Assembly: GCA_963707635.1 (NCBI GenBank)
Contig: OY970173.1
Coordinates: 2,752,001-2,816,000 of the forward strand
Source: Candidatus Latescibacterota bacterium
Lineage (GTDB): Bacteria; Krumholzibacteriota; Krumholzibacteriia; WVZY01; JAKEHA01
Direction of reading: 5' to 3'
DNA: 64,000 nt
The notes beneath the pieces were generated by a model. That model was not told the DNA's origin. It saw nothing but the letters and a program-made list of their open reading frames with translations, and ran no database searches. Of this stretch, positions 12,013-34,343 are shown one piece after another (within the stretch, counting starts at the first letter, position 1; the number at the start of each line of letters is the position of its first letter). The position numbers were made by a program, and so were the translations under genes.

Positions 12013-12027
12013 TGGCGTCACTCTTGC
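12013..12027 (+). promoter_or_regulatory. sigma54 -24/-12 promoter candidate
   Basis: TGGCGTCACTCTTGC fits TGGC-N7-TTGC; about 35 nt upstream of ATG 12062. Confidence 0.55.
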
Positions 12028-12061
12028 CTCTGGAAAAGGTTTCCGGCGGTGCCGGTCCTCC

Positions 12062-13294
12062 ATGAATACGCGCGATCGAAACACGCTGGCGACGCTGTTC
12101 TTTTCCGTTTTTGCCACGGTGATCGGGGTGGGCATCGTCGTGCCTCTGTTGCCCGTATACGCGCACGGGCTGGGCGCGAACGGATTTACCATCGGCCTCT
12201 TGTTCGCCGTGTTCGCGCTCTCGCGAACGCTCTTCCTGCCGGGCTTCGGCCGCCTCTCCGACCGCAAGGGCCGCAAGGCGCTCATCGTGCCGGGCCTTTT
12301 CGCTTACGCCGCGATTTCGGTGGCGCTGGCGTGGGTCGACGACGTCGCCGGGCTGCTCGCCGTGCGGTTCCTGCACGGAATCGCGTCGGCCATGCTGATG
12401 CCGGTCATCCAGGCGTACGTCGGAGATCTCGCCCCGCGCGGCCGCGAGGGGCGCCTGCTCGGAATCCACGGCGCGTTCGTGCTCGCGGGGATGAGCATCG
12501 GGCCGATGGTCGGCGGACTGATCCACGACCACTTCGGTCTGCGCTTCGCGTTTCTCTCCATGGGGGCTCTCTCCTGTGCGGGTGGCGTCCTGTGCGCGGT
12601 CCTGCTCCCGGGCGCACGCGACGAGCGAATCACCCGCCGGCGGGAGCCCGCCGCCTGGAGGGAACTGATCCGCGACGGCAACCTGGTCGCCCTGTTCGGG
12701 TTTCGCTTCAGCTACGTGGTCTGCATCGGGATCATCTGGGGATTCCTTCCATTATATGGCGCGCTGGAGCTCTCGCTCTCCAGCGCGTCGATCGGACTCC
12801 TGATTACGCTCGGCATCCTCGCCAGCGCGGTCATGAACGCCCCGATGGGGTTTCTGGCCGATCGGATCGACCGGAGGTTCATGGTGGTCGGCGGCGGGTT
12901 GCTCGCCGCGTACGCGATGCTCTCGTTTGCATGGGCGCAGGAGTATCGCGACGCGGCGCTCGCGTCGATCCTCTTCGGCCTGGGCGGCGGAGTATCCATG
13001 CCGGCGGTCATGGCCATGGCGGCGCGCAAGGGGAGCGGCCGGGAGTCGATGGGAAGCGTCATGGCCTTGATGACGGTGGCGCACAGCCTCGGCATGCTCG
13101 CCGGCGCGCTCGCCGGCGGAATCGTAATGGCTCGCTTCCACCTGCACGCCGTGTTCCCCACCGGTGCGGCCGCCATGACGATCGGAATCGGCTGGTTCGT
13201 CGCAGTGACTCTGCTGCGTGGCGTCCGTGCCGTCGGAAGACACGCGGCGCCGGACGGCTCGCTCAACGTTGACCCGGCCGTGGCCCGTCGCTAG
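12062..13294 (+). CDS. MFS transporter (DHA1-like)
   Basis: GRLSDRKGRK motif A; about 12 TM segments. Confidence 0.88.
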   Translation: MNTRDRNTLATLFFSVFATVIGVGIVVPLLPVYAHGLGANGFTIGLLFAVFALSRTLFLPGFGRLSDRKGRKALIVPGLFAYAAISVALAWVDDVAGLLAVRFLHGIASAMLMPVIQAYVGDLAPRGREGRLLGIHGAFVLAGMSIGPMVGGLIHDHFGLRFAFLSMGALSCAGGVLCAVLLPGARDERITRRREPAAWRELIRDGNLVALFGFRFSYVVCIGIIWGFLPLYGALELSLSSASIGLLITLGILASAVMNAPMGFLADRIDRRFMVVGGGLLAAYAMLSFAWAQEYRDAALASILFGLGGGVSMPAVMAMAARKGSGRESMGSVMALMTVAHSLGMLAGALAGGIVMARFHLHAVFPTGAAAMTIGIGWFVAVTLLRGVRAVGRHAAPDGSLNVDPAVARR

Positions 13295-13304
13295 ACTCCG
13301 CGCC

Positions 13305-14390
13305 ATGAGCAGACGCGTCGCTCACGAACTCCGAGCGTCCCTCGTGGCAATCGCCGGCCTCGTCGCCTTGAATCTATCGGTACCTGCGGACTCACGCTCC
13401 GCGGGAGCCGCGCGCGCGGTGGTCTTCCGCACCCAGACCATGGGCACCTGGGGATCGCTCACGCTGGTGACCGCCGACTCCGCCGCGGTGGCCGACCTTG
13501 CGTACCGCAGCCTCCTTGCCTTCCACAGGGTGGATTCTTTAATGAGCAACTGGACCGAGGTGAGCGACGTCGCGCGCATCAATCGGGAGGCGGGCACGAA
13601 GGAAATCAGCGTCCACCCCGAAGTCGCCACCGTGCTCGACCTCGCCCAGCGCGTTGCGAAGGAGAGCGACGGGGCCTTCGACATCACGGTGGAGCCGCTC
13701 GTGCGCCTCTGGGGCTTCCTCGGCGGGCACCCGCGCGTGCCCAGCGCCGATGAAATTGCCATCACGCTCGAGAACGTCGGCTATAAGAAGATGCGCTTCG
13801 ACCCCGCGCGCGGCACGATCCATTTCGAACAGGACGGGGTTCGCATCGACCTGGGCGGCATCGCGAAGGGCTACGGAGTCGATGCGGCGGCCGAGGTGCT
13901 GCGGCGCGCCGGGGTCGCGAACGCACTGGTGGACCTCTCCGGCAACATGGTCGCCATCGGGGACGCGGCGGGTCACAAGGGGTGGACGGTGGGGCTGCGC
14001 GACCCGTCCGGGGTGCACCCGTACCTCGCGCGCATCCATCTCTACGACCAGGCGATCGCGACCGCGGGAAACTACGAGCAATTCGTCGCCGCGGACGGCA
14101 AGCGTTACGGCCACATCCTCGATCCGCACACCGGCTGGTCGGCCCAGGGGCTCGCGTCGGTAACTATCGTCACCTCGGGGGCGATGATGGCCGATGCGTG
14201 GGACGACGCCCTGTTCGTCTTCGGGCCGGAGGCGGCGCGCGCGTTCGCGCGCGAGCGTGACGACCTGGCAGTCGTGCTGATCGAGCCGCGCGCGAACGGC
14301 CCCGGCATCATCTGGATAGAAGAGCAGCTTCGACCCCGCGTTGAGATCGAACCCGGCCTCACCGGCACGTATACGGTACGCTACTTCTAG
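13305..14390 (+). CDS. apbE: FAD:protein FMN transferase
   Basis: TMGT, GAFDITV, DLGGIAKGYGVD, ATAGNYE, HILDPHTG. Confidence 0.93.
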   Translation: MSRRVAHELRASLVAIAGLVALNLSVPADSRSAGAARAVVFRTQTMGTWGSLTLVTADSAAVADLAYRSLLAFHRVDSLMSNWTEVSDVARINREAGTKEISVHPEVATVLDLAQRVAKESDGAFDITVEPLVRLWGFLGGHPRVPSADEIAITLENVGYKKMRFDPARGTIHFEQDGVRIDLGGIAKGYGVDAAAEVLRRAGVANALVDLSGNMVAIGDAAGHKGWTVGLRDPSGVHPYLARIHLYDQAIATAGNYEQFVAADGKRYGHILDPHTGWSAQGLASVTIVTSGAMMADAWDDALFVFGPEAARAFARERDDLAVVLIEPRANGPGIIWIEEQLRPRVEIEPGLTGTYTVRYF

Positions 14391-14583: not shown

Positions 14584-14598
14584 TGGCGTGGACCTTGC
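14584..14598 (+). promoter_or_regulatory. sigma54 -24/-12 promoter candidate
   Basis: TGGCGTGGACCTTGC(A) in the roughly 365-nt intergenic gap before the large operon. Confidence 0.55.
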
Positions 14599-14756: not shown

Positions 14757-15251
14757 ATGCAATTGGGAACCATGAACGATCACGCGAACGTTTTCGCCCG
14801 TGGCAAGGACAGGCGGGAAGCGGCGGCATCGATGCTGCTCGTCGGCACCTGCACGGCCCTGCTCGCCGTGGCTGCATGCGAGAAGGCATCGCCCACCGAT
14901 CCCGATCCCCCCTCGGGTGGAAGCAAGTACGTTCTCGACTACAACGTGTTTGCCGCGCAGATCGACCCGATCATGACCAGCCTGGGCTGCGACGACGTGA
15001 ACTGCCACGGTGGCGGGATCCGGGGGACCTTCGCGCTCTCGCCGGATAACGACAAGGACGTCGCGTTAGATTTTGCGCAGGCGAGCCTGCAGGTCTCCCC
15101 GCAGAACCCGCCCGCCAGCGCCCTGGTGTCGAAGCCGCTGGACGAGGCGTGCGGCGGGGTGGGCCATGGAGGCGGCGCGTTCTTCCATTCGCTGGACGAT
15201 CCGGACTACCTCGCCATGCTGGCGTGGATCGAGGCGGGTGAGTACCAGTGA
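14757..15251 (+). CDS. Lipoprotein with planctomycete-type cytochrome c-like domain (Cx4CH)
   Basis: Lipobox VAAC; F..QIDPI...GCDDVNCHG ... SALVSKP ... HGGG ... AWIEAG; start 14757 or 14772. Confidence 0.65.
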   Translation: MQLGTMNDHANVFARGKDRREAAASMLLVGTCTALLAVAACEKASPTDPDPPSGGSKYVLDYNVFAAQIDPIMTSLGCDDVNCHGGGIRGTFALSPDNDKDVALDFAQASLQVSPQNPPASALVSKPLDEACGGVGHGGGAFFHSLDDPDYLAMLAWIEAGEYQ

Positions 15252-15919
15252 ACGAGCGACGTGCTGCAATGTTTGTAGCGGGCGCCGCAATGGCGCTCTG
15301 CGTCGCGCCGGGGCTCGCGTGCGCGCTCGAGCCGGACTCGACGACCGCTGCTCCCGCCCCCGCGACGGCGCCCGCGGACACCGCCGCGACGACCGGCAAG
15401 AACGGGCTGGTCTATCTGGTTCCGGCGCTCGAAGGCGCCCACTACCACGTGAGCGACGACCGGCGCCGGTTCCAGCACCGGATTTCGTTCAGCCCGGCCA
15501 TCGGCCAGCTGGGCGACAACGACGAATTCGTCTTTCGCGTGGCCTACAGCCCCAACACGTGGCTCGGGTACGAGATCGCGCTGGGCCACAACCCGGCGTC
15601 GTCGCTCCACGCGCTCCTGCACACGTTCAACGCCGTCTTGCGCTACCCGCTGCGGGGGCGCTTTCAGCCTTACATGACGCTCGGATACGGAATGATGACG
15701 GTGTACCCGGGACAGGCGATCAACGCCGACCCGGTCACCAAGAACACCCTGACGGTCGGCGGCGGCCTGGAGATCTATCTCCGGGACGACGTCGCCCTGC
15801 GCGGAGAACTCCGCGGCGCCACCGTCCTCGGGCAGGAGCTCGGGAGCGGCGGCACCGTGGCGTACGACTACCGCGAATACACGATCGGCTTCTCGTTCTA
15901 TCGAAGTCTGAAAGGTTAG
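15248..15919 (+). CDS. Outer-membrane beta-barrel protein (OmpA/OmpW-like, 8-strand)
   Basis: Signal peptide; FQPYMTLGYG, VGGGLEIY, ALRGELRG; aromatic C-terminal strand. Confidence 0.7.
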   Translation: MNERRAAMFVAGAAMALCVAPGLACALEPDSTTAAPAPATAPADTAATTGKNGLVYLVPALEGAHYHVSDDRRRFQHRISFSPAIGQLGDNDEFVFRVAYSPNTWLGYEIALGHNPASSLHALLHTFNAVLRYPLRGRFQPYMTLGYGMMTVYPGQAINADPVTKNTLTVGGGLEIYLRDDVALRGELRGATVLGQELGSGGTVAYDYREYTIGFSFYRSLKG

Positions 15920-15940: not shown

Positions 15941-17914
15941 ATGCGACAGGCAACCAACTGGAAGACATCCTCCTTGGGCGACATCGCCCTGAAACTCGGC
16001 AGCGTGCTGATGCTGCTGGCCCTTTCCTTCGGCGGCTGCCGTGACAGCGCGCCCGACGACATCATCGTCGAAGAGGAAACCACGGAGGCGTTGGTCTTCG
16101 TGAAGACCAAGGGCGAAGAGTCGCTCAACCGCAGCTGGGCCGAGGGCAACCTCTACAAGTTGTCCCCCATTTCCCCGCTGGGAGTGGTGACACCGATCAC
16201 GAACTTCACGGGAGCCGCCGTGAGCGACCCGTGCGTCTCGTTCGACGGGAAGAAGATCCTCTTCTCGATGCGGCCGCCGGGCGGCGGGTGGCGGAACATC
16301 TACGAGATCAACGTGGACGGCACCGGGCTGCGCCAGGTGACGAGCGGCGGGGGTCACGACTTCGACCCCGTGTACCTGCCCGACGGGCGGATCGCGTTCA
16401 CCAGCTCGCGCGCGGGAACCATGGACGAGTACAACCATGCCCCGGCCGAGAACCTGTACAACTGCGACAGCGACGGCTCGAACCTCGTGCGCGTCAGCTT
16501 CAACATGAGCGACGACTTCGACCCGACGCTCCTGCCGGACGGGCGCCTCGTGTACACGCGCTGGGAACACCTCGGGCAGCAGAACCGCTTCCCGCTGTTC
16601 TTCTCGAACCCGGACGGGTCGCGGTTCTTCCACGAGTTCGGCCCGCACAACCGCAACTTCTTCCACGCGCAGCCCACGCCCGACGGCCGGCTGATCGCGA
16701 TCGAGTCCACCATGATCGAGGAAGACGCGGGCCCGATCGCCGTGCTCAAGCTCGAGCAGGGACCGGCCGATCCGAGCACGAGCAACGATCTCCACTGGGA
16801 CGTGCTCACGACCCAGGTCAACAACGACGGCGCGCCGTGGGCGTACGGCGCCTTCAAGTACCCCTTCCCGCTCGGCGGCAACAAGTACGTGGCGTCCTAT
16901 ACGCTCCCGGCCGCCGAGGAAGTCGACGTCGACTACGGCCTGTACACATTCAGTCTGAAGCAGACGGGCTCGGGCACGCCGGCCGACCCGGCCACGCTGA
17001 GCATCGAGGACCTCACGTTCCTCTATGACGACCCGGCCTGGAACGAGTACGACGCCCAGCTGATCGCGCCGCACGCGAAACCGCCGGTCGTCGCGCCCAT
17101 CGCCAACCCGGCGCTGGACTACGGCATCATTACGGCCGACGACGTATTCTTCCGCGGAACCAACGACGGTCAGGAGAGACCGACCGTCGGCAGCGTCGAT
17201 TCCATCGCCGTCATGGTCGGCATTCCGACCGTACAGGGCGAGATGAACGACTTCTCCGCCAACGAATTCGAGAAGCGCGCGCTGCTCGGCTTCGCCCCGG
17301 TCAACAGCGACGGTTCGTTCCGCATCCAGGTGCCGGCCCGCACACCCCTGACCTTCGCCACCCTGGACAACCTCGGCCGCGCGTTTGTGAACAAGCGGAC
17401 CTGGTTGTACGTGCAGCCCGGCGAAGAGATCACCAACTGCATCGGGTGTCACGAGGACCGGGCCCTCAACACGGTTCCCCAGAACCCGAACCCGATCGCC
17501 AAGACGCAGGCGCCCGTGGACCTGAACATCGGCCCGGGTGGTTACACCTACATCAACTATCGGGACCACATCGGCCCGATCGTGCGCACGAAGTGTCAGT
17601 CGTGCCACATCGAAACCTACGCGGGCATCGACACGATCCCGCCGGCGGGTGGCCTGGACCTGTCGGAAGTGCCCGACACGACCATGGAGAACCAGATCTT
17701 CCCGCGCGCGTACGTCAACCTTTCCGGCGAGGCCGACATGGGCACGCCGAACGTGACCGACCCGGGATTCCCGCGCCGCTCGACGCTGGTCGACTACGCG
17801 CTCGGCGTCGGCAGCGCGTCCGCTCAGGGCGCGCATCCCAGCTCGAACCCGCTCTCGCCCGGCGAGCAGCGCCTGTTCAAGTTCTGGGTCATGCTGGGCG
17901 CGCAGTACCGGTAA
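15941..17914 (+). CDS. Lipoprotein with TolB/PD40 beta-propeller, hydrazine-synthase-alpha-like middle domain and two CxxCH motifs
   Basis: Lipobox FGGC; repeats DPCVSFDGKKILFS, DPVYLPDGRIAFTSSR, PTLLPDGRLVYTRWE; DGSFRIQVPARTP..F..LD..G...VQPGE..NCIGCHE; CQSCH. Confidence 0.8.
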   Translation: MRQATNWKTSSLGDIALKLGSVLMLLALSFGGCRDSAPDDIIVEEETTEALVFVKTKGEESLNRSWAEGNLYKLSPISPLGVVTPITNFTGAAVSDPCVSFDGKKILFSMRPPGGGWRNIYEINVDGTGLRQVTSGGGHDFDPVYLPDGRIAFTSSRAGTMDEYNHAPAENLYNCDSDGSNLVRVSFNMSDDFDPTLLPDGRLVYTRWEHLGQQNRFPLFFSNPDGSRFFHEFGPHNRNFFHAQPTPDGRLIAIESTMIEEDAGPIAVLKLEQGPADPSTSNDLHWDVLTTQVNNDGAPWAYGAFKYPFPLGGNKYVASYTLPAAEEVDVDYGLYTFSLKQTGSGTPADPATLSIEDLTFLYDDPAWNEYDAQLIAPHAKPPVVAPIANPALDYGIITADDVFFRGTNDGQERPTVGSVDSIAVMVGIPTVQGEMNDFSANEFEKRALLGFAPVNSDGSFRIQVPARTPLTFATLDNLGRAFVNKRTWLYVQPGEEITNCIGCHEDRALNTVPQNPNPIAKTQAPVDLNIGPGGYTYINYRDHIGPIVRTKCQSCHIETYAGIDTIPPAGGLDLSEVPDTTMENQIFPRAYVNLSGEADMGTPNVTDPGFPRRSTLVDYALGVGSASAQGAHPSSNPLSPGEQRLFKFWVMLGAQYR

Positions 17915-17933: not shown

Positions 17934-18515
17934 ATGAAGCCAAGGGACAAGATGCGCGTGGCGATGATGACCGCCGCTTTGGCGGCGACGGTCACGTCGG
18001 CGCGCGCCGCAACCGACGCGGGCGAGACGCTCGCGAGCCACCGCCTCACGTCGTTCGGTGGCGCGGCCACGACCCTATCCGCGTACCGCGGCCAGGTGCT
18101 GGTCGTGAACTTCTGGGCGAGCTGGTGCGCGCCGTGCCGCGACGAGCTGGCGACGATGAATCGATGGAACGACACCTGGGCCCAACGCGGGGCCCGCGTG
18201 GTCGCGATCTCGATCGACAAGGACGCGGCGAAGGCACAGCGCTTTGCACAGCAGCTGAAGCTTTCGCTCACCGTCCTGCACGACGGGCCCGACGGCCTGG
18301 CGCGCACGCTCGACATCCCGTCTTTGCCCTGCACCTATCTGCTCGATTCGCAGGGGCGGGTCGTGAGTGTGGTGCGCGGGAGCTCGGCAAACGAGCTGGC
18401 GGCGCTGCACTCGAAGGTGGAAGCGATGCTCGCCTCCGCCCGCCCGATGGCGCCGCAGGAGGCGGACCTGGGGTCCGCGCCGCTTCCGTCGAACAGCGAT
18501 GGAGGCACACGATGA
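17934..18515 (+). CDS. TlpA family thioredoxin-like disulfide reductase
   Basis: VNFWASWCAPC; SLP cis-Pro region. Confidence 0.9.
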   Translation: MKPRDKMRVAMMTAALAATVTSARAATDAGETLASHRLTSFGGAATTLSAYRGQVLVVNFWASWCAPCRDELATMNRWNDTWAQRGARVVAISIDKDAAKAQRFAQQLKLSLTVLHDGPDGLARTLDIPSLPCTYLLDSQGRVVSVVRGSSANELAALHSKVEAMLASARPMAPQEADLGSAPLPSNSDGGTR

Positions 18516-18721
18516 GACGTTTTCGGTTGTGGCTGGTCCTGCTGCCGCTCGGGCTCCAGGTCGGTTGCGCGACGGTGCGTCCCTATGAAAAGGAGCACCT
18601 GGCGGATCCGATCATGGTCTCGGCCCAGGACGAGGCGATGCGGGAACTGAAGTGGCTCGACGCCCGCGAGGGCTCGACCGGGGGCGCGGGAGGCGCCGGC
18701 GGCGGATGCGCTTGCAAGTAA
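18512..18721 (+). CDS. DUF4266 family small lipoprotein
   Basis: VGCATVRPYEKEHLADPIM ... REGSTGGAGGAGGGCACK; ATG at 18512. Confidence 0.85.
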   Translation: MRRFRLWLVLLPLGLQVGCATVRPYEKEHLADPIMVSAQDEAMRELKWLDAREGSTGGAGGAGGGCACK

Positions 18722-19851
18722 GCAGAATTCACCTCCTCGCGGGGGTGCTCGCCGGGGTACAGGTGTCCGTCACCGCGCCGCCGATCGCAAGCGCGGCCGA
18801 GCCGACGGCTTCGTACACGTTCAATTTCTATTCGGACGTGAACGGCGTGGACGTATACAGCAACTACGTCGGCAGCGGGTTGCGGCTGCGCAATGGCGTG
18901 CAGTTGTCGGCCGAGTGGGTGCACGACCGCGTCGTGATCCCCGCCATCGACGCTCCCCCGGGGAGCCAGGAGGCCGTCGACGCCATCACCACCGCGAGCC
19001 GGCCCATCGCCGGCACCGCGGACCCGTACCAGGACTACGTCAAGGTGCGCAATTCCCTGGAGACCAGCGCCGCTTATCGCGGCTACGACCTCGATTACTA
19101 CGTGTCGAGCGAGAGCGACTACTTCGCACAGATGGTCGCCTTCGGCTACAACCACGGCTTCATGGAGGACAACCTGAACCTAGCCGCGCGCGTGAGCTAC
19201 AGCTGGGACAACATCAAGCCGCTGGAAGACGACGACACCCAGAGCGTGCCCGACTATCGCCGGACCCTGCACTGGAACATCATCGCCACCCAGGTGGTCA
19301 CGCCCACCACGGTGGTCCGCGTCGGCGCCGAATTCAACAACGTGCACGGGTTGCAGCACGACCCCTACCGCAACGTGTACGTGGCCGGAACCAACGTGCC
19401 GGAAAAGCACCCGGCCGACCGCGGACGCCGCGACGTGTTCGCGAGCGTGAACCAGTACATCTATAACCGCTCGAGCGTGAACCTCGAGTACCGCTACTAC
19501 AGCGACGACTGGGGCGTGTCGTCGCACGCGATCGGCGTGAAGTTGAATCAGTACGTGAGCGACACCTTCGTGGTTCGCTATCGCTACCGGTACTACACGC
19601 AGGCCTCGGCGATCTTCTACCGCGACGACTACACCCAGACCGGCGGGGTCAACGGCTTCCAGACCGCCGACTACCGGCTGGGAGATTTCGGCGCCAACCT
19701 CTTCGGAGGGCGGATTGCGTGGCGCCCGTACCGCGTGCTGGGGAAGGTGTTCCCCGCGAGCGCCCAATTGATCTTGAGTTATGAACGGTATTTCAACAGC
19801 AACAATTTCTCGGCGAACGTTCTCGAAACCGGTCTGCTGATCGTGTTCTAG
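18706..19851 (+). CDS. DUF3570 family putative outer-membrane beta-barrel protein
   Basis: VDAITTAS, SSESDY, DPYRNV, PEKHPADR.R, YRYYSDDWGV.SH, RYRYYTQ; follows DUF4266; ends in Phe. Confidence 0.82.
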   Translation: MRLQVSRIHLLAGVLAGVQVSVTAPPIASAAEPTASYTFNFYSDVNGVDVYSNYVGSGLRLRNGVQLSAEWVHDRVVIPAIDAPPGSQEAVDAITTASRPIAGTADPYQDYVKVRNSLETSAAYRGYDLDYYVSSESDYFAQMVAFGYNHGFMEDNLNLAARVSYSWDNIKPLEDDDTQSVPDYRRTLHWNIIATQVVTPTTVVRVGAEFNNVHGLQHDPYRNVYVAGTNVPEKHPADRGRRDVFASVNQYIYNRSSVNLEYRYYSDDWGVSSHAIGVKLNQYVSDTFVVRYRYRYYTQASAIFYRDDYTQTGGVNGFQTADYRLGDFGANLFGGRIAWRPYRVLGKVFPASAQLILSYERYFNSNNFSANVLETGLLIVF

Positions 19852-25260: not shown

Positions 25261-28200
25261 ATGCGGAGACGGTTCAGGCACTCTCCGACGCGGCACGTCG
25301 GTTTGCTCGCGCTCGCGGGCCTCGTCTTCGCGCCGTCGTCGCGCGCGGCCGACGCGCCGGCGGGACCGCCGGCGCCGGTCACGTCGGTCCCGGCGATCCG
25401 AACCTTGACCACTCCCGAGTGGGATGCACTGAATCTCGGTCGCGCCGTCGATCTGTGGCTCGCGGGCGACCTTCGCAGTGCCGCCGAGCAACTGGAATCC
25501 GTCGACATCTCCCCCGCGTCCCCGTTCCCCCAGGCGGACCGCGCCGCATTCTTGCTGGCCGCCGCCTACCTGCGCCTGAACGACCGCGAATCGTTTGAAC
25601 GCGTCGCCGATCGCGCCGCCGACGCCACCGGGTCTCCCTATCGCCGCTGGATCAGCTATTGCCAGCTCACCCTCGCGCGCACGCGCGCCGGCGCCGGCAC
25701 CGGCCTCGTGAACGCGCTACCGGCGGGTTGCCCGGCGTCGACATCATGGGCGCGTCGTTCCTGCTGGAAGTCGGACCGGCCGGCCGACGCGCTGCGACTC
25801 CTCGAGTCCACCGAACCGGACGACGCGCTGGGTTCGATCCATCTCTATCTGCAGGCGCAGGCCCGTGCCGCCACCGGCGCGGACGCGACGCGCGATTGGG
25901 AGCGCCTGGCCGAACGGACGGCCCGCGGCGCCGCCGAGGCGGATTTGATCGGCGTCGCCGTCCTCGAGCTCGCCTCGGCGCGGCTCGCCCGCGGCGAGGA
26001 CATCGGACCCGTGCTCGACCGCATGCCACCCGCAAGCCGTCACGTCGCGCGCGCCGCGCACCTGCGCGGACTCGCCGCCATCGCGGCCGGCGACACCACG
26101 GCCGGCTCGAACATTCTCGCCCGCGTTCTCGACGAGCATCCCGCGTACGAGTCGCGCCGCGACGTCAAGCTGGCCCTGGGCCAGTCGGCGATGGATCGCC
26201 GGTTCTGGCACGCGGCGCTGCGTTACTTCGAATCCGCAGAGGACAACTGGGGCGACGAATACGGCTCGCTCGCGCGCCTCGAACGCGAGGACAGTCTCGC
26301 AGAGGTATGGCGCGTGTGGGAGGCGCCGAACGCGTGGCACGACGAGATCCGCCTCGCGCCGGAGGCGCTCCTGGCCGGCACGGCGGAGCTGGCGAATGAA
26401 TCGCTCGACCTGCGGCGCTCCCCCGACCTCGCGTCGGGCAAGAGTCTCACCGGCGAGCTGTGGCCCGCCCTCGACGGCGCGCGGGTCCGCGCGTCGTGGG
26501 ACTCCACCGACGCCCTGTCCCGCTTCACGCCCACATCCGACGAGTGGGAAGCCCTGCGCGCGCTGGCGAGCAACCGCCGTCGCGTGGCGAGTCTGGCGGC
26601 GTGGCAGGAACGGGTGATCGCCGAGCGGGAACGGGAAACGGCGCGCCGGATCGACTACCTGCGCGAGGGGCGCGAGCGCGCCGACTCGAGCGAGGCGCGC
26701 CTCGCGGACGGCGCCTCCCGGCTCGAGCTCCTCCTCGCGCGGCTCGACGCGGCCTTGCTCCAGCTCAAGTCGGTCCGTGACGGCGCGCTTCTGCAGATCG
26801 CCACGCGCACGCGCGCCACTATCGTCGAGTTCCAGCGCGACGTGCTGTTCCTGCAGGCGCTGCGTCACTTCCACGTCGACGGACCGAACCGGGACCGCCC
26901 GGAGCAATTCCCCGCCGGTGTTCCCTCGCCCGCCGAGCTGCTCACGCGCGAAGAGGCGCTGGCAGCGCAGTCCGACAGTCTGCTGACCCTGGTGGCGCAG
27001 CGCTATCCTGATTTGATCAATCGGTCGTACGCGGAAATCTGGGAGCCGCGGCTGATGGGCGACAGCCGGCTCATCCGGGTGGCGCTCAACACCGAGCTCA
27101 CGCGGTCCCGCCGCATCGGCGCGACCCTCGACTCCACCCTGGCCGGGTACGCCAACGACCCCGTCCTGGCGGCGGCCCGGGCGCGCCGCGACGAGTTGGC
27201 GGCCACCGCCGATTCGCTCCGCATCGCGGAGGACCGCCTGCGTCGCGACACCGCCCGCGCGGTGGCGGCGCGCGCCCGCGCCGCGCTCGTGCTGGAACGC
27301 GAGGCGATCGACTACCACCTCGCCGACGCCTCCTACGAACTGGCCGTCTACATGGGGTCCGACGCCACCAGCCCCGAAGACACCGTGGTCGCCGCGGAGT
27401 ACCGCGAGCGCGCGATCGGGTACCTGGGCGACTTCCTCGCGCGCTACCCGCAGAGCGTCGCGCGCGGCGAAACCCGCTTCCGGCTGGCCGACCTCCGGCT
27501 CGCGAAGGCGCGCGACGACTTCCAGGCGCGCATGGCGACGTTTCTGGGCGAGAACCCGACCGCCGATGACCTCGGCAACCGCGCGCTCGCGCCGTTCGTC
27601 GACTACGCCCCCGCGATCGCGCTCTACGAAAAGATCCTGGCCGAAGACACGAACTTCGCGCACGTGGACGCGGTGCTCTTCAACCTGGGCATGATCCTCT
27701 CCGACGACGGACAGCCCCGCGGCGCCGCGTACCTCGCGCGGCTCGTGGAGGAATACCCCGGTTCCCCGGACGCGCAGGAGGCGTGGCTGCGCATGGGGAG
27801 CGACCGTTTCGACGCCGAAGACTACGCGGGGTGCGTCCCGCTGTTCGAACACGCCGCCACCGGCAAGGATCCGTCCTTCACCGCCATCGCCCTGTACAAG
27901 CTCGGGTGGGCCTGTTTCGAGGAGGATCGCTTCGACGGATCGGCCGACGCGTTTCGCCGTTTGATGGACCACTACGCCGCCCATGCCGACGTCGCCCGGT
28001 CGATGGATCTGCGCGACGAGGCGGAAGAGTACCTCGTGCACTCGCTGGCCCGCGCCGGCGGCGCCGACGCGTTCCGCGACTATTTCGACCGCGTGGGCCA
28101 TCGCGACTACGAGGCGCGCATCCTGATGTCGCTCGGTCACCTGATGCGGAGCTTGAGTCTGTTTGAAGAGGCGGTGGCGTGCGACGAGTTGTGGCTGCGC

Positions 28201-30183
28201 CGCTACCCCACCGACCCGCAGGCGCTGGCGGTGGCGGATCGAATGGTGGCCACCTACCAGCGGTGGAACAAGCCCGACCAGGCCCGCGACGCCAAGCTCG
28301 CGCAGGCCGAGCGCTTCCTGCCCGGAAGCGCGTGGTACGAAGCGAACCGGGACGACGAACTCCGGCGCGCGTCGCTCGCCTTCGCACAGAGTGCGTATCG
28401 TGAAACGGCGGCCTACTACCACCGCCGCGCGCGCGCGACCAACGACGCGGCGAGCTGGCAGGCGGCGCTCACGAACTACGAACAGTACCTGACCCAGTGG
28501 CCGAAGACGGCCGACGTGTACCGCATCCACTACCTCGCGGGCGAGGCGGCCAGCCGGCTCAAGCAGTACCCGCGGTCGCTCGCGCACTTGAAAGCGGCGT
28601 CCGCCAGCGACTCCACCGCCCTGGCGGCGGAGGCGGCGTGGCAGCACGTGGCGGTGACCGACGAATGGTATCGAGGCTCGCGGATCGGCGGCGCATCGAC
28701 CGGCAACGATACCCTGGCGGTGAAGCTGCTCGCGACCAGCGGCGAGTTCGTTTCGCGCTACCCCGCGGACAAGCGCGCGGCCGACATCGTCTGGCGCCAG
28801 GGCAACGTGGCCTACGCGCACGGCTGGTACACCGAAGCGGCGACCAGCCTCGAGGCGTTCGCGAAGGCCTACGCGGCCGATCCGCGCGCGACCCGCGCGG
28901 TGCGCATGGGTGGCGACGCCCGCTACCGCCGCGCCGAGTACCAGCTCGCCGGCGCCGCGTACGAGCAGGCGCTCGCGCTGGCGCGCGCGTCCGGGCAGGA
29001 CTCCGTGGCGGCGGCGCTCGAGGTCACGATCCCGCTGTGCTACTTCAAGTATGCCGAGAGCGTCGCCGCGGCCGACAGCACGCACGGCGACGAAAAGGCC
29101 GCACCGCTGTTCGCGCGCGTCGCGAAGCTGTGGCCGCGATTCCAGTATCACGACCTCGCGCTGTACCGGGCCGGCCTCGGGTTCGCCGCTCACAAGAGCT
29201 ACGCCGACGCGGCCGCCTCGTGGGAACAATTGCTCGCCGAGCATCCCAAGAGCGAATACGCGCGCGACAGCGCCGTTCAGATCGCGCTCGCGCACGAGAA
29301 GTCCGGCAACGCCCGCAGTGCGGCGGCGGCCTACGAACGATTCTCTCGATTGTACCCGCAGGATCCCGATGCACCCGAAGCGCTGCTGAAGGCGATCGAT
29401 CTGCTGGTGGCCGCGCACGACGACGCCGGCGCCGAGCAGATGCGGAGCACGCTGCTAGAACGCTTCCCCGGTGAAACCGAGGCCGTCATGGAGATCCGTG
29501 CCCAGCGCGCCGGCCGCGAGCTGGCGAAGGTCTCGGCGGGCGGGTCGACGTTGTCGGCGCTACTCGCGACACCGAAGCCGGGCAAAGCCGCGAAAGGCAC
29601 CGCCGCGCCGGCGCCTTCGGCGTCGGACCTGCACGCGTACCTCGACCTCGCCGCGAAGCACCCGGAGCTGGCTTCGCCGGCCATCCTCGCCCAGGTCGAC
29701 TATCTCAAGGCCGAGGAGAAATACCCCGCCTATGCGGCGATGCGCCTGACGCAGCCCCTCCCCAAGGCCATCGAGAAGAAGAAGGCCAGCCTGGAAGCGC
29801 TGCTCAAAGCCTACGAAACCTGCGCGACGCGCGGCGTGACCGAATACGCGCGCGCCTCGGCGTATCGCATCGGGCAGGCGCTGATCGAATTCGGCGACGC
29901 GCTCATGAAGAGCGAGCGCCCGGAAGGATTGAGCGAGGAGGACCTGCTGGCGTACGACGAGGTGATCTCCGGCCAGAGCTTCGAGTTCTACGACCGTGGC
30001 GAAGACGTCTGGTCGACGATGCTGCAGCAGGCGCGCGACGCCAAAGGCGACGACCCGGGCGGGTGGCTCGTTCGCACCCGGGACGCGCTCTGGCCCCGTC
30101 TGGCGGAGCGTTTCCGTTTCCAGCCCGAGGTGGACTATCCGCGCATGGCCGCCACCCCACCCCCGGAACCGGGGGCGGAATAG
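25261..30183 (+). CDS. Very large periplasmic TPR/coiled-coil protein (GltD/AgmU-like)
   Basis: 1640 aa; signal peptide; many TPR units (DAVLFNLG, ALYKLGWA, ASAYRIG); C-terminal SERPEGLSEEDLLAYDE. Confidence 0.8.
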   Translation: MRRRFRHSPTRHVGLLALAGLVFAPSSRAADAPAGPPAPVTSVPAIRTLTTPEWDALNLGRAVDLWLAGDLRSAAEQLESVDISPASPFPQADRAAFLLAAAYLRLNDRESFERVADRAADATGSPYRRWISYCQLTLARTRAGAGTGLVNALPAGCPASTSWARRSCWKSDRPADALRLLESTEPDDALGSIHLYLQAQARAATGADATRDWERLAERTARGAAEADLIGVAVLELASARLARGEDIGPVLDRMPPASRHVARAAHLRGLAAIAAGDTTAGSNILARVLDEHPAYESRRDVKLALGQSAMDRRFWHAALRYFESAEDNWGDEYGSLARLEREDSLAEVWRVWEAPNAWHDEIRLAPEALLAGTAELANESLDLRRSPDLASGKSLTGELWPALDGARVRASWDSTDALSRFTPTSDEWEALRALASNRRRVASLAAWQERVIAERERETARRIDYLREGRERADSSEARLADGASRLELLLARLDAALLQLKSVRDGALLQIATRTRATIVEFQRDVLFLQALRHFHVDGPNRDRPEQFPAGVPSPAELLTREEALAAQSDSLLTLVAQRYPDLINRSYAEIWEPRLMGDSRLIRVALNTELTRSRRIGATLDSTLAGYANDPVLAAARARRDELAATADSLRIAEDRLRRDTARAVAARARAALVLEREAIDYHLADASYELAVYMGSDATSPEDTVVAAEYRERAIGYLGDFLARYPQSVARGETRFRLADLRLAKARDDFQARMATFLGENPTADDLGNRALAPFVDYAPAIALYEKILAEDTNFAHVDAVLFNLGMILSDDGQPRGAAYLARLVEEYPGSPDAQEAWLRMGSDRFDAEDYAGCVPLFEHAATGKDPSFTAIALYKLGWACFEEDRFDGSADAFRRLMDHYAAHADVARSMDLRDEAEEYLVHSLARAGGADAFRDYFDRVGHRDYEARILMSLGHLMRSLSLFEEAVACDELWLRRYPTDPQALAVADRMVATYQRWNKPDQARDAKLAQAERFLPGSAWYEANRDDELRRASLAFAQSAYRETAAYYHRRARATNDAASWQAALTNYEQYLTQWPKTADVYRIHYLAGEAASRLKQYPRSLAHLKAASASDSTALAAEAAWQHVAVTDEWYRGSRIGGASTGNDTLAVKLLATSGEFVSRYPADKRAADIVWRQGNVAYAHGWYTEAATSLEAFAKAYAADPRATRAVRMGGDARYRRAEYQLAGAAYEQALALARASGQDSVAAALEVTIPLCYFKYAESVAAADSTHGDEKAAPLFARVAKLWPRFQYHDLALYRAGLGFAAHKSYADAAASWEQLLAEHPKSEYARDSAVQIALAHEKSGNARSAAAAYERFSRLYPQDPDAPEALLKAIDLLVAAHDDAGAEQMRSTLLERFPGETEAVMEIRAQRAGRELAKVSAGGSTLSALLATPKPGKAAKGTAAPAPSASDLHAYLDLAAKHPELASPAILAQVDYLKAEEKYPAYAAMRLTQPLPKAIEKKKASLEALLKAYETCATRGVTEYARASAYRIGQALIEFGDALMKSERPEGLSEEDLLAYDEVISGQSFEFYDRGEDVWSTMLQQARDAKGDDPGGWLVRTRDALWPRLAERFRFQPEVDYPRMAATPPPEPGAE

Positions 30184-30271: not shown

Positions 30272-31303
30272 ATGCTCGACACCATGACGAACCTGGTAGA
30301 CGACTTTGCATCGGCGGCTCTCGCTTCGCCACACGCGCACAAGGCCGCGGGGGCTCCGAATCGGCGCCGTTCGCGTCCGCCCGCCGCGGGTCCTGTCACC
30401 GATCCACCCCACGGGGCTTCGCCCGCGGGGGCCCCGGATCGGCGCCACCCGCGTCGGGGCTGCATGCTCGTGCTGGCCGCCGTGCTCGTGACGGCTGCCA
30501 GCGGGTGCAGCTCGCTGGGGTTCCTGCCCGGTGTCGGTAACCAGAGCACGTCGGAACGCGTGGACATCAAGTCGGAACAGGTGGTCGACGAGATGACGTC
30601 CGCGCGCGCCCACATGCAGCTCGCACCGCGGGAACCGTACTGGCCGTATCGCATGGGCGAGCTGTACGCCGCGGCGGATTCGGCCGCGCTGGCCGTCAGT
30701 TACTTGAACGCCGCGTTGAGCGTCGACCCGTCGTACGCCCCGGCGGCGGTGTCGCTCTCGCGCATCTACTACGGCGCCAAAATGCACCCGCAGGCCGTGA
30801 CCCTGCTGGACGATTTTCTCGCGCGCGACCCGGCCGCCCCCGACGCGCTGCGCGCGGCGCTGGCACTCCATCTCGAGGCCCTCGGCGAGATCGAGCGCGC
30901 GCAGTCGGTGCTCTCCGCCTGCGCGAACGAGTCCCGCGACGCCTACGTCGCGCGGGCGATGATCGCCCTGCAGGGCAGCGACGCGCCCGCCGCGCTGGCC
31001 GCCGCCAAACAGGCGCTCGACGCGGACAAGAGTGCGGCCAACTACAACAACTACGGGATCGCCCTCCTGTACGCCGGCCGCCCGATCGAGGCGCGCGATG
31101 CATTCGGGAAGGCGCTCGACTTGAACGAACAGCTCCCGGGCGCGCTCTACAACATGGCGATTGTCGAGACATTCTATTTCTTCGACGAGGCCGCCGGGCG
31201 CGAGTGGTTTGCCCGATACAGGCAATACGCGAGCGAGGATCCGGACGGCCTGGCTTCGCGCCTGGGCGCCGACGTGAGCAAGACACAACGGCCCGGCAGC
31301 TAG
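30272..31303 (+). CDS. TPR lipoprotein (GltE-like)
   Basis: Lipobox ASGC; NNYGIAL...ARDAFGKAL...ALYNMAI; true start probably downstream of 30272. Confidence 0.72.
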   Translation: MLDTMTNLVDDFASAALASPHAHKAAGAPNRRRSRPPAAGPVTDPPHGASPAGAPDRRHPRRGCMLVLAAVLVTAASGCSSLGFLPGVGNQSTSERVDIKSEQVVDEMTSARAHMQLAPREPYWPYRMGELYAAADSAALAVSYLNAALSVDPSYAPAAVSLSRIYYGAKMHPQAVTLLDDFLARDPAAPDALRAALALHLEALGEIERAQSVLSACANESRDAYVARAMIALQGSDAPAALAAAKQALDADKSAANYNNYGIALLYAGRPIEARDAFGKALDLNEQLPGALYNMAIVETFYFFDEAAGREWFARYRQYASEDPDGLASRLGADVSKTQRPGS

Positions 31304-31327
31304 CCGGCCCGACCAGGCAGGACGCGA

Positions 31328-31717
31328 ATGAAGCACGCACCGACCCACGGTTTTGATTCACGAGGCCATGCCGGCGCGCGCGCGCCCGTGTGGTTCGTCA
31401 TCGTCGCGCTCTGCGCGGGTGCCGCCGCGGGTCCGCGTCGCGCCGAGGCGGCGGCCGCAACGCAACCGGCGGCCGCGAAAGCGACGCCGGCGGCCATGCA
31501 CAAGGAGACCGTGCGCACGCTCGATGCCGTTCACATCGAGGGCGAGGTCGCGGTGCCGCAGGTTCTGTTCATCACGTCACGGGATGCGCGCCGCTTTCGT
31601 GACGGCCTGGGATCGAAGTACCAGAGGAGCGCTTCGGACATTGCCGGGTTGCTCAGCCCGCCGCAGCGGCTGCGCGTCGTCGCGAAACACGAGTTGAATC
31701 AGGAGGAGGGAAAATGA
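31328..31717 (+). CDS. Small secreted protein (GltF/CglF-like)
   Basis: Signal peptide; LDAVHIEGEVAVPQVLFI motif; lies directly before exbB. Confidence 0.6.
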   Translation: MKHAPTHGFDSRGHAGARAPVWFVIVALCAGAAAGPRRAEAAAATQPAAAKATPAAMHKETVRTLDAVHIEGEVAVPQVLFITSRDARRFRDGLGSKYQRSASDIAGLLSPPQRLRVVAKHELNQEEGK

Positions 31718-32358
31718 ATCCGCTATCCGCTTTCGCTAAGTTCTACCAGGAGGGTGGGCCGTTCATGCACCTTATTCTCGCCACCGGAGTCGCCATACTG
31801 GCGCTCACCGCGGAGAGGTTCTGGGTCATCGGTCGCGCCGCGCGCGTGAACCACGGCAAGCTCACCCGCGACGTGCAGACGCGAATCGCCAAAGGCGACC
31901 TTCCGGCGGCGGTCGATATCTGCCGGCGCGTCAAGGGACCCGTGGCCGCCGTTGCCCAGGCGATCCTCTCGCGCCACAACGCCGATGAGGAGTCGCTCCA
32001 GAACGCGGCGGACGGCGCCGCCACCATCGTGCTGCCGCCGTTGTCGCGCCGTCTGCCCTACCTGAACACGTTGGCCAACGTGGCCACGCTGCTGGGTCTG
32101 CTCGGCACCATTTTCGGCCTCACGACGGCCTTCTCGGCGGTGAGCGCCGCCGACCCTGCGCAGCGTTCGTCGTTCCTTGCGGTGGGGATCGCGCAGGCCC
32201 TGAACACGACCGCGTTCGGACTCATCATCGCCGTGCCGACGCTCATCCTCCACAGCTTTCTGGTGAGCAAGGTGGAAGGCGTCGTCGAGTGCATCGACGA
32301 AGCGAGCGTTCGCTTGATCGACGCCGTGACCCGGAAGGGGTCGGCCAACGCGGCCTAG
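31714..32358 (+). CDS. MotA/TolQ/ExbB proton channel (AglR-like)
   Basis: GGPFM, TLLGLLGTIFGL, GIAQALNTTAFGLIIAVP. Confidence 0.92.
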   Translation: MNPLSAFAKFYQEGGPFMHLILATGVAILALTAERFWVIGRAARVNHGKLTRDVQTRIAKGDLPAAVDICRRVKGPVAAVAQAILSRHNADEESLQNAADGAATIVLPPLSRRLPYLNTLANVATLLGLLGTIFGLTTAFSAVSAADPAQRSSFLAVGIAQALNTTAFGLIIAVPTLILHSFLVSKVEGVVECIDEASVRLIDAVTRKGSANAA

Positions 32359-32394: not shown

Positions 32395-32844
32395 ATGCGA
32401 AGCAGCACGCGACGGGGTTACCGTGACATCGTGGCGGACGACATCGAGTTGATGCCGCTCATGAACCTGTTTGTGGCAATGATCCCGATGCTCCTGATCT
32501 CGGCCGTCTTTCTCAACGTGACCGTGATCGACATGAAGGCCCCCCCGGAGGCAGCGGACGCCGGCGCCGGCCAGAAGGACAGCATCGCGCTCGCAATCAC
32601 CATCAAGGAAAACTACTACGTGGTCGAGGGGCGCGGGGTCGAGAAGCGGGTCATCGTGCGCGCCGACGCGGACGCGCAGGAACAGCTCGCGGACGCCCTC
32701 GCCGGCGTGGTCGCCGAGCACCCGGACAACCAAGACGTCATCATCATCTCGGAGCAGGACACGCGGTACGGAGACATCGTCGCGGTCATGGACATCTCGC
32801 GCGATTCCGGTCTGCCCGCGGTGTCGCTCCTCGGCGCCAACTGA
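32395..32844 (+). CDS. ExbD/TolR family protein (TM Asp replaced by Asn)
   Basis: IELMPLMNLFVAMIPMLL; YGDIVAVMDISR. Confidence 0.88.
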   Translation: MRSSTRRGYRDIVADDIELMPLMNLFVAMIPMLLISAVFLNVTVIDMKAPPEAADAGAGQKDSIALAITIKENYYVVEGRGVEKRVIVRADADAQEQLADALAGVVAEHPDNQDVIIISEQDTRYGDIVAVMDISRDSGLPAVSLLGAN

Positions 32845-32862
32845 CAGAAAGTCGGATTACGA

Positions 32863-33354
32863 ATGCGCAGACGAAGACGCCGGCAGATCAAGGTACGCAG
32901 CGTGCATACGCCGTTGCGATTGACCTCCATGATGGACATTCTCACGACGCTCTTGCTGTTCCTCCTCAAGAGCTTCGTCGTGGAAGGCGAAGTCATCGCC
33001 CCGGTTCCCGGCGTTGATCTACCCGAGTCGTCCAGCACGACCGCGCCGCAGGCGTCGATCGTCGTGGCGATCTTCGACGACACGATCATGATGGACGGCG
33101 AAGTGGTGGCGCGGGTGTCGAAGGCGGGCGCGTCCGGCAACCTGCTCATCAGCCCGCTCGCAAGGCGGCTGGACCACGCCCGGGAGACGGCCACCGAGAT
33201 CGCACGCCTGCGGGGCGGCGACGAGGTGTTTCAGGGCAAGGTTTCGATCCAGGGCGATCGCGAGATCCCCTTCGCGATCCTCCAGCGCGTCATGTACACC
33301 TGCAGCGCGAGCGGTTACGAAGAAATCTCGCTCGCCGTGATCGGGAAGTCATAA
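32863..33354 (+). CDS. ExbD/TolR family protein (AglS-like)
   Basis: LRLTSMMDILTTLLLFLL; DLPES; IQGDREIPF..LQRVMYT. Confidence 0.88.
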   Translation: MRRRRRRQIKVRSVHTPLRLTSMMDILTTLLLFLLKSFVVEGEVIAPVPGVDLPESSSTTAPQASIVVAIFDDTIMMDGEVVARVSKAGASGNLLISPLARRLDHARETATEIARLRGGDEVFQGKVSIQGDREIPFAILQRVMYTCSASGYEEISLAVIGKS

Positions 33355-34343
33355 TGCCGGCCGGAAGCCTCTCGCAGTACCAGCAGCCCCTGTGGGGGCC
33401 CGTCGATCGCACGCTCCGCAACTGTTTCATCGGCGCCTCTATCCTCGGCTTGCTGGTTCTGATCGTGGCGCTGGTGGCACCCGTGCTGCCCACCCGGCCC
33501 ATGACGGTGGAAGACGTTCCAGAGCGCATCGCGCGCCTGATCCTCGAGAAGCCCAAGGCGCCGGCGGCGAAAGCACCCGAATCCGTGGCCCTCGCCCCGA
33601 AGGTGGAACCGAAGGCGGACGCCCCGCCCAAGGTCGAACCCAAACCCATGCCCAAACGCGCGCCTGCACAGCCGCGCGTGTCTCCGGACAAGGGCGTCCA
33701 GGGTCGGCTGAAAGCCAGACAGGAAGTCACGCAAAACGTCGCGCAGGTCACCGGCTCGCTCGACAGGGTGCTCGACAACCTCTCGAAATCGCTGCCCGCA
33801 GCCACGAAGCCTTCCGGTGGCGGCGACACCGCCCGGCACCGCCGCTCGGTGCGCAGCGGACGATCGGGCAACCAGATTGCCTCGGTGGGTGGGGTGTCGA
33901 GTCTTTCGTCGGCGGACGTTGCCGGGTCCGCCATCGAGAGCAAGGGAATCAGCATCGCGGCCATCGCCGATCTCGACGTGCAGGGTGGAGGCGGCGCACC
34001 CGACGGCACGCCCGGCGCGCGCCCTTCCGCCCCTTCGAGCGGGCGCAACGACTACCGAAGCAACGAATCCCTCCTGGGCGTGATACGCCGTTACGCTCCG
34101 GGGATACAGTTCTGCTACGACAACGAGCTCAAGCGCAACCCCGGGCTGCGCGGCAAACTCGTGGTCAGCATGATCGTGCTGGCGAACGGCACGGTCAGCG
34201 AAGCCACCATCGTCGAAGACAGTTTGAAATCGCCCTCCGTCCGGGAGTGCGTGCTCGCGCAGATTCGGGGATGGCAATTCCCCGCCATTCCGTCCGGGAG
34301 CACGAGCTTCAAGACCCCGTTCGTGTTCACACCGCCCAACTAA
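33354..34343 (+). CDS. TonB-like protein with AgmX/PglI-type C-terminal domain (GltG-like)
   Basis: N-terminal TM, Pro/Lys-rich spacer, IQFCYDNELKRNPGLRGKLVV...CV...IRGWQFP. Confidence 0.85.
   Translation: MPAGSLSQYQQPLWGPVDRTLRNCFIGASILGLLVLIVALVAPVLPTRPMTVEDVPERIARLILEKPKAPAAKAPESVALAPKVEPKADAPPKVEPKPMPKRAPAQPRVSPDKGVQGRLKARQEVTQNVAQVTGSLDRVLDNLSKSLPAATKPSGGGDTARHRRSVRSGRSGNQIASVGGVSSLSSADVAGSAIESKGISIAAIADLDVQGGGGAPDGTPGARPSAPSSGRNDYRSNESLLGVIRRYAPGIQFCYDNELKRNPGLRGKLVVSMIVLANGTVSEATIVEDSLKSPSVRECVLAQIRGWQFPAIPSGSTSFKTPFVFTPPN

Follow-up and report, generated by a model that had tools for sequence, protein, structure and literature searches.

The window analysed here is a 64,000-nucleotide stretch (contig OY970173.1, positions 2,752,001 to 2,816,000) of a Candidatus Latescibacterota genome (3.2 Mb, one contig, 96% complete) whose close homologues are labelled Krumholzibacteria, Eisenbacteria and Latescibacteria. 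It carries 21 open reading frames (ORFs), all on the plus strand between 12062 and 34343, that begin with an MFS transporter and end with a TonB-like protein of the AgmX/PglI type. We suggest that one unit within this run encodes a single trans-envelope machine, in which a proton motor of the Agl-Glt type would pull on a tetratricopeptide-repeat scaffold and an outer-membrane (OM) barrel platform. The platform would carry haem lipoproteins at the cell surface, with a thiol-flavin relay as their likely source of electrons; we give this reading a little less than an even chance. It is built on gene content and order, co-inheritance, a separate motor clade, haem motifs and CxxC/CxC motifs, all of which can be seen in the sequences. 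The ORFs are as follows (TPR, tetratricopeptide repeat; T9SS, type IX secretion system; HMM, hidden Markov model).

12062..13294, +, MFS transporter, a bystander outside the conserved unit (Pfam MFS_1)
13305..14390, +, ApbE flavin transferase (Pfam, 281 bits)
14757..15251, +, lipoprotein with a Cx4CH haem motif (lipobox Cys41; no Pfam match)
15248..15919, +, small OM beta-barrel 1, OMP_myx_plus-like (TIGR04565, E 8.5e-5, under the cut-off)
15941..17914, +, HzsA-like lipoprotein with a beta-propeller, a middle domain and two CxxCH motifs (PDB 5c2v_A, E 5e-30)
17934..18515, +, TlpA/ResA-like thioredoxin with WCAPC (Pfam/NCBIfam; best NCBIfam match ResA)
18512..18721, +, small exported DUF4266 protein with CxC at its C-terminal end (Pfam, 43 bits)
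18706..19851, +, divergent DUF3570 protein, predicted 16-stranded OM barrel (Pfam, 134 bits; structure model)
19875..21521, +, NHL propeller with a T9SS-type (FlgD_ig) C-terminal domain (CTD), lineage-specific (Pfam/NCBIfam)
21531..22154, +, lipoprotein 2, family not assigned (Cys29 conserved; best Atlas score 0.80, a lead only)
22157..22897, +, predicted small OM beta-barrel 2 (Atlas 0.97 to PF13505 clusters; no Pfam match)
22947..23801, +, SH3 domain with small OM beta-barrel 3 (PF13505, PF08239; TIGR04565 at 59.9 bits, cut-off 60)
23813..24400, +, conserved exported 195-aa protein (conserved in relatives; no Pfam match)
24405..25244, +, exported coiled-coil protein (homologous to the ~200-aa gene at the head of proteobacterial motor operons)
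25261..30183, +, 1640-aa TPR scaffold with a GltC-like N-half and a GltD-like C-half, named by position (HMM matches to proteobacterial TPR genes)
30272..31303, +, TPR lipoprotein in the GltE position (lipobox Cys79)
31328..31717, +, small exported protein in the GltF position (conserved in the phylum; no family match)
31714..32358, +, ExbB/TolQ-family motor subunit of the core-complex clade, AglR-like (Pfam; tree)
32395..32844, +, ExbD 1, Asn at the proton-carrying position (motif read)
32863..33354, +, ExbD 2, Asp at the proton-carrying position (motif read)
33354..34343, +, TonB-like GltG counterpart (NF033768, 87.8 bits, cut-off 40)

Pfam and NCBIfam matches (MFS_1, ApbE, HZS_alpha with PD40, AhpC-TSA with WCAPC, DUF4266, DUF3570, NHL with FlgD_ig, SH3 with an OMP barrel, TPRs, MotA_ExbB, ExbD twice and the AgmX/PglI tail) bear out the ApbE, HZS_alpha, TlpA-type, DUF4266, DUF3570, ExbB/ExbD and AgmX/PglI labels of an earlier note on this DNA. 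Its count of about 21 same-strand genes in this order also holds for every ORF. Two of its labels lack family support: 'PepSY-like' has no PepSY match in Pfam, and 'GltF-like' comes from position, size and a motif. GC content at third codon positions is 0.78-0.92 in the ORF frames measured.

From the Cx4CH gene through TonB, intergenic gaps are -16 to +88 nt when the TPR lipoprotein is started at its most upstream ATG; the gap before it would be about 280 nt if a later ATG is the true start. The overlapping or abutting arrangement that the earlier note described does not extend to apbE, which is followed by a gap of 366 nt here and of 87-896 nt in relatives (measured to the first matched residue). 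The apbE gene is present in 46 of 80 related loci, many of the others being cut short, and in one family (f4) it lies at the far end of the cluster on the opposite strand, facing TonB. The Cx4CH gene is probably the first of the operon proper. Of 38 related loci that extend 1.6 kb or more beyond apbE, only one has the MFS gene, formerly listed as a member, on its upstream side. A riboswitch search of the apbE gap gave no Rfam match at E up to 1 here and none at the gathering score in 19 related loci, no short words were common to 57 apbE-gap sequences, and a promoter/terminator scan of 11700-15000 gave signal at chance level. Within the 1640-aa TPR gene, a compensating pair of short frameshifts near 25725-25780, where the alternative frame matches homologues, probably reflects assembly indels. 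TonB is directly followed, at 34524-36331 (+), by genes for transhydrogenase alpha-2 (4TM) and beta. No gene for the NAD-binding alpha-1 part adjoins them, and they are not in the related loci examined.

Co-inheritance of the redox and motor halves

We searched 151 genomes of the host phylum (Krumholzibacteria-labelled relatives); related genomes are not independent, and counts are given without P values. The AgmX/PglI tail scored above its cut-off in 33 genomes. DUF3570 matches in 60 genomes fell into a canonical group, mostly at about 280-440 bits, and a divergent group at 104-159 bits in 32 genomes (two fragments, at 200 and 80 bits, were counted as canonical-type). Scores above 600 bits for the HzsA-like protein came from 32 genomes, and two weak matches, of 93 and 66 bits, were not counted. 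These are the same 32 genomes that carry the divergent DUF3570 protein, and 31 of them have the AgmX/PglI tail; G114, which is fragmented and 83% complete, has the HzsA-like and DUF3570 genes with only a partial tail match at a contig edge. Both redox markers are present in 31 of the 33 AgmX-positive genomes. In one exception (G059) the motor lies at a contig end, and in the other (G069) a scar remains (L019 4364-5106) in which the start of apbE is joined out of frame to the end of TonB, as would be left by either a whole-block deletion or an assembly collapse. Within the phylum, a solitary half was seen only where a contig breaks off, where the genome is fragmented or where a scar remains.

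Linkage is tight as well. DUF3570 and TonB share a contig in 16 genomes, and in 15 of these the segment is colinear over 11-15 kb. Gene order is identical in 80 of 80 DUF3570-anchored loci as far as each extends, these loci reaching the TPR gene at best and not the motor. One genome (G105) has the cluster genes in two copies on different contigs. A search of a plasmid collection returned weak DUF3570 matches and none for TonB.

The union recurs in a second phylum. Among 331 genomes of one phylum (inferred to be Pseudomonadota), the AgmX/PglI tail occurs in nine, and a redox gene adjoins the motor operon in seven of them. Clusters are complete and colinear in G174 and G162. G342 keeps a colinear DUF3570-to-TonB segment with a weak Cx4CH-like match, and G330 has its redox and motor genes arranged divergently. 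In G414 an HzsA-like gene stands directly behind TonB, with two barrels and no DUF3570 match, and G435 has apbE in front of the motor operon. A protein with 21 CxxCH motifs, cut by the contig start, is co-oriented directly behind the core-complex TonB in G222 (L115 1-2176). G158 has the motor alone, and the G316 contig is 4 kb long. A third sample, of 231 genomes from the class to which G174 belongs (by gene content, inferred to be Gammaproteobacteria), shared 4 motor-positive genomes with the second. It contained the tail in 40 genomes, DUF3570 in 50 (one unpublished) and HZS_alpha in 27. The tail accompanies HZS_alpha in 24 of 27 genomes, compared with 40 of 231 in the whole sample, and DUF3570 is present in each of the 24; the markers lie on one contig in 12 of the 24, always within 10-18 kb, and on different contigs in the remaining 12. 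Rare co-occurrence of the halves, one of the outcomes that the earlier note set down as refuting it, is not what these counts show. The union is not confined to the lineage in which that note placed part of the novelty, as it is also proteobacterial, and the redox half is a published module (PMC8238504) that the note left unnamed.

Phylum-built profiles for the NHL-CTD, lipoprotein 2, barrel 2, 195-aa, Cx4CH and GltF-position proteins found no match in 16 proteobacterial stretches. Some proteobacterial clusters carry a divergent trio of genes (L106 3745-10165, L114 4762-11313, L102 1239-6930). Its products are a monohaem protein resembling DUF1585, a dihaem lipoprotein with LamG, and a protein of ~540 aa that starts in a Tat-like way and fits no family clearly.

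These counts bear on the possibility that a redox module and a general envelope motor are co-regulated but physically separate systems that travel together. In its favour are splits: the G110 cluster is broken inside the TPR region, with blocks ~2 Mb apart, and the G435 blocks are 110 kb apart. In addition, 8 of 40 proteobacterial motors lack both redox markers, and for the 12 of 24 cases on different contigs, linkage cannot be judged. A motor match is missing from 3 of 27 HzsA-like genomes. The redox half is thus nearly always accompanied by the motor, whereas the reverse holds less strictly. We nevertheless consider separate systems highly unlikely, given the near-absence of solitary halves in the host phylum, the interleaving of the genes with barrels, and a link kept across two phyla.

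A dedicated motor of the core-complex clade

The Agl-Glt core complex has been described as gltC, gltD, gltE, gltG, aglR, aglQ and aglS plus one extra gene, with GltF a later addition (PMC3169522, in excerpt). The earlier note had the last genes of the run mirror GltD/E/F/G with AglR/Q/S; the motor set does match proteobacterial motor operons, but GltF does not belong to the core so described and GltC does. Phylum-built profiles match proteobacterial genes position by position for the coiled-coil protein, the TPR halves, ExbB, both ExbDs and TonB. The coiled-coil protein is matched in all 8 proteobacterial motor loci (E 1e-7 to 3e-3) and is probably the 'additional gene' of the published complex. 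The TPR C-half matches a ~1000-aa TPR protein in 8 of 8 loci (E down to 3e-70) and the N-half an upstream TPR protein in 2 of 8 (E ~1e-8), so that the 1640-aa protein apparently unites what proteobacteria encode in two separate genes. The window proteins gave no GltE or GltC HMM match; proteobacterial counterparts of the TPR lipoprotein, itself unmatched by the GltE model, match NF033758 weakly (21-41 bits, cut-off 225). NF033769, which we take to be the GltF/CglF family, gave no match, its positive control also being silent.

The ExbB is distinct from ordinary paralogues, as the earlier note's alternative of a common Tol-Pal/TonB motor would not have it. In a tree of 26 rows, 10 dedicated ExbBs of the phylum share one side (99/96) with 10 from proteobacteria, and the four paralogues of this genome fall outside it; the support values are rough, the bootstrap not being fully settled, and no Myxococcus AglR is among the rows. 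Wherever the motif was read, both groups have Asn in ExbD1 and Asp in ExbD2 at the proton-carrying position, which fits the AglQ/AglS heterodimer model (PMC11761067, in excerpt). A review, as far as its accessible text goes, predicts Asp in both Myxococcus ExbD-type subunits (PMC9389320), and the Asn/Asp pair may be a difference from Myxococcus.

The TonB-like protein has 23 residues ahead of a single transmembrane helix, a Pro-rich linker and an AgmX/PglI C-terminal domain, with no SxxxH and no cytoplasmic FHA part; it is the single NF033768 match in the genome. The dedicated ExbB is present in 26 of 151 genomes, all within the 32 that bear the cluster. Among the six without it, G114 is fragmented, three, all of one genus, lack motor genes in the operon, and the other two have ordinary ExbB/ExbD genes that group in the tree with paralogue 4 of this genome. 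SxxxH appears in the TonB helix in 5 of 5 loci without a dedicated motor (possibly only two or three events, since kin are not independent) and in 0 of 21 with one, the window included. The related SHLS is the motif by which TonB and TolA are reported to bind their motors (PMC12204202, in part). We read these cases as rewiring to a generic motor; as SxxxH occurs where the dedicated motor was lost or swapped, the need for proton force seems to have been kept.

Tol-Pal and an ordinary TonB receptor system were tried as candidates and rejected: none of the 21 proteins matches Pal or a receptor, the TolB match is to the haem protein at 62 bits (cut-off 343), and the DUF3570 barrel has 16 strands.

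Another reading is gliding in the manner of Myxococcus Agl-Glt, the redox genes being passengers. It would fit the shared motor clade architecture, the three small barrels and the propeller lipoprotein, and one roadblock-family gene lies elsewhere in the genome. We regard it as extremely unlikely: there is a single AgmX/PglI protein, hence no GltJ, the TonB-like protein lacks a cytoplasmic domain, and the core alone is stated to be insufficient for motility in the accessible part of PMC3169522.

We give almost no weight to the idea that the motor powers type IX secretion here, GldLM being possibly absent from the lineage. The genome does encode SprA and 107 FlgD_ig matches, one CTD protein lies in the operon (its gene is in 79 of 80 related loci), and GldL was not found in the genome, although the positive control was silent too. 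With that many matches, however, a CTD on the NHL protein is ordinary here. The cluster occurs in only 33 of the 151 genomes, and the same cluster in proteobacterial loci has no counterpart of the NHL-CTD protein. General export of CTD proteins, which the earlier note had offered as one role, is unlikely in a genome with its own SprA and ~100 CTD proteins. Elsewhere in the window, a 963-aa protein (49494-52385, +) with 5 CxxCH motifs, weak CBM96 and Ig matches and a T9SS-type CTD looks like a multihaem cytochrome that is T9SS cargo. The same genome has two clusters of large multihaem cytochromes with 4-20 CxxCH each (contig 2448391-2462570 and 3052010-3056553).

Haem and thiol motifs and a predicted flavin site in the redox half

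In the small haem lipoprotein, C78, C83, H84 and H137 are kept in at least 90% of 60 sequences, with His137 the predicted distal haem ligand. The Cx4CH spacing noted earlier is correct for this locus and 22 of the 60, but 36 have Cx5CH. The HzsA-like protein is homologous to 5c2v_A along its length (chain residues 77-767, E 5e-30; model confidence, pLDDT, 85). Its His236 is invariant (44/44), is present in the three proteobacterial alignments that reach the position, and aligns with HzsA Cys303, presumably a zinc ligand. In HzsA, Tyr591 is the ligand of haem alpha-I and His587 binds zinc (PMC12607021, in excerpt). Tyr at His+4 after the first CxxCH is found in 0 of 44 HzsA-like sequences. The haem site would accordingly differ from that of HzsA, as bis-His or His-metal, and the absent Tyr591 equivalent together with His236 points against hydrazine synthesis. 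That function was rejected, the NF052339 score also being 91 bits against a cut-off of 800 and no beta or gamma genes lying in the operon. Propeller residues 166-242 hold five invariant or nearly invariant His and Cys175, a possible metal site.

The thiol-flavin genes likely provide a relay. The TlpA CxxC is present in 61 of 61 sequences. The DUF3570 protein is modelled as a 16-stranded barrel (pLDDT 81); fold searches with the model returned many barrels (best Z 21.7 for CdiB and 20.5 for BcsC) and no specific relative, and are uninformative on function. A variant flavinylation motif, DAITTAS (residues 92-98, nt 18979-18999), ends a helix in the long strand 3-4 loop, which by the pattern of loop lengths would face outward. 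In alignments it falls on DAISGAS of G174 and on the first of the motifs in the canonical paralogue. Over 80 loci the motif reads DAITTAS in 65, another T/S-x-A-S in 12, canonical D..SGAS in 2 and none in 1. The flavinylation consensus is D-x-x-[S/T]-G-A-[S/T], and changing its Gly to Ala left ~50% flavinylation in a model substrate (PMC12052999, in part). The cluster DUF3570 protein likely carries flavin mononucleotide (FMN).

The same barrel could be read in terms of reduction-coupled uptake, in which the TonB-like arm would gate it, the flavin loop would plug it, and a ligand, for example a metal chelate, would be reduced and imported. In its favour, a TonB-like protein stands beside a 16-stranded barrel, 25 DUF3570 clusters contain a VIT1 iron transporter (PMC8238504), and the propeller His could bind metal. 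We consider uptake unlikely. The unit has no 22-stranded plugged receptor and no conserved inner-membrane transporter, G414 has motor, barrels and haem protein with no DUF3570 match, and canonical DUF3570 modules exist without the motor.

Alternatively, the motor and barrels would export or assemble the haem lipoproteins, and TlpA, DUF4266, DUF3570 and ApbE would keep cysteines reduced, for instance for Cx4-5CH attachment, with no respiratory flow. ResA as the best NCBIfam match of TlpA, the unusual haem-motif spacing and the proposal of secretion as the original job of the core (preprint 10.1101/2020.07.22.216333, in excerpt) speak for this. Against it, the model puts the flavin motif on a barrel loop that points outward at the OM, a long way from the haem lyase of the inner membrane, and the genome has a separate Ccm system; export with maturation only is in our view quite unlikely.

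The proposed machine and its relation to known systems

For the trans-envelope machine that we favour, a working order can be sketched by analogy with Myxococcus and the published flavinylation module. In the Myxococcus model, three small barrels on GltC present the propeller lipoprotein CglB, GltG grips GltD, and GltF bridges (PMC11761067, in excerpt). Here, the ExbB (ExbB5) with its ExbD(Asn)/ExbD(Asp) pair would drive the TonB-like protein, which would grip the GltD-like half of the TPR scaffold. The GltC-like half would hold the three small barrels, and these would present a propeller lipoprotein that is the HzsA-like dihaem protein in place of the adhesin. Electrons would pass from DsbD to TlpA, DUF4266, FMN on DUF3570 and the haems, the haem lipoproteins being displayed at the cell surface. 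Three small barrels and a haem propeller lipoprotein in the operon, and the minimal set in G414 (motor, two barrels, HzsA-like gene), favour a display platform. Barrel 1 resembles the SH3-barrel protein (hhalign 86%) and has homologues in proteobacterial loci. The presence of Ccm, DsbD and SprA genes in the genome gives further support.

Besides the splits and unpaired halves described above, several points weigh against this reading. The surface exposure of the haem lipoproteins is a prediction. Canonical TlpA-DUF4266-DUF3570-apbE modules occur without a motor, one of them in this genome, so the thiol-flavin relay does not need the motor. DAITTAS has Thr at the consensus Gly, and the second motif is lost. 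The Glt names of the TPR proteins, the small protein and the barrels come from position with weak or no HMM matches, and the SxxxH cases may represent few events. The earlier note's claim of one trans-envelope system is thus well supported genetically, through strong linkage and co-inheritance, whereas contact between the halves and their joint function are proposals.

A broader idea is that the ancestral job of the gliding motor was the proton-powered export and mechanical holding of an HzsA-fold haem enzyme at the surface, wired to cytoplasmic reductant by a thiol-flavin path across a dedicated 16-stranded barrel. We regard it as doubtful; if true, mechanical work would be linked to extracellular electron transfer, and gliding would stem from the replacement of the haem lipoprotein by an adhesin. 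The locus in any case joins two open questions. The role of the core in non-gliding bacteria was stated to be unknown in 2011 (PMC3169522, in part) and in a 2020 preprint (10.1101/2020.07.22.216333, in part), and the electron transfer role of DUF3570 has been called uncertain (Meheust et al. 2021, PMC8238504). It names a candidate cargo, the HzsA-like dihaem lipoprotein, offers single-residue handles (the ExbD2 Asp, DUF3570 Ser98 and His236), and places the hydrazine synthase alpha fold in a non-anammox setting. The same union exists in a proteobacterial class, where cultured strains should exist. Both halves have been published; we found their union in no publication, with subscription journals mostly uncovered and the full eLife cluster table possibly listing it. 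Of the works searched, only two mention DUF4266; in one of them, 10.1101/2023.06.07.544157, no motor is involved in the portion available.

Compared with Tol-Pal/Ton (PMC12204202, in part), the system has an ExbB/ExbD-family motor and a three-part force transducer. It differs in lacking the SxxxH anchor, in its two unequal ExbDs, and in scoring far under the TolQ/ExbB equivalog cut-offs. The ApbE/DUF3570/thioredoxin/DUF4266 'DsbD systems' (PMC8238504) share all four genes, with TlpA-DUF4266-DUF3570 adjacent and DsbD elsewhere in the genome. Here, DUF3570 is divergent (scoring about 120 bits against about 400), with a single D-x-x-T-[T/S/A]-A-S instead of two [S/T]GA[S/T] motifs, and comes linked to a motor and to haem proteins. 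Hydrazine synthase alpha (PDB 5C2V chain A) has the same propeller, middle domain and two CxxCH motifs in the same order; the present protein is a lipoprotein, without Tyr at the Tyr591 position (44/44) and with an invariant His for Cys303.

Compared by description, with no direct sequence comparison, the Myxococcus gliding machine has a similar ExbD-pair motor, TonB-like transducer, TPR scaffolds, three small barrels and propeller lipoprotein. The present system has no GltJ and no FHA domain, and has a dihaem domain where Myxococcus has an adhesive VWA domain; CglB (NF033757) was not found in the genome, the control genome also being silent. The likeness to the Agl-Glt core complex is close, with the gene set and order of the proteobacterial operons, one ExbB clade, two ExbDs, an AgmX/PglI TonB and the extra ~200-280-aa gene. 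What sets the locus apart from that complex is the fusion of the GltC- and GltD-like parts, the joining in one operon to barrels, haem lipoproteins and a flavinylation module, of which the 2011 account (in excerpt) makes no mention, and its occurrence in a new phylum.

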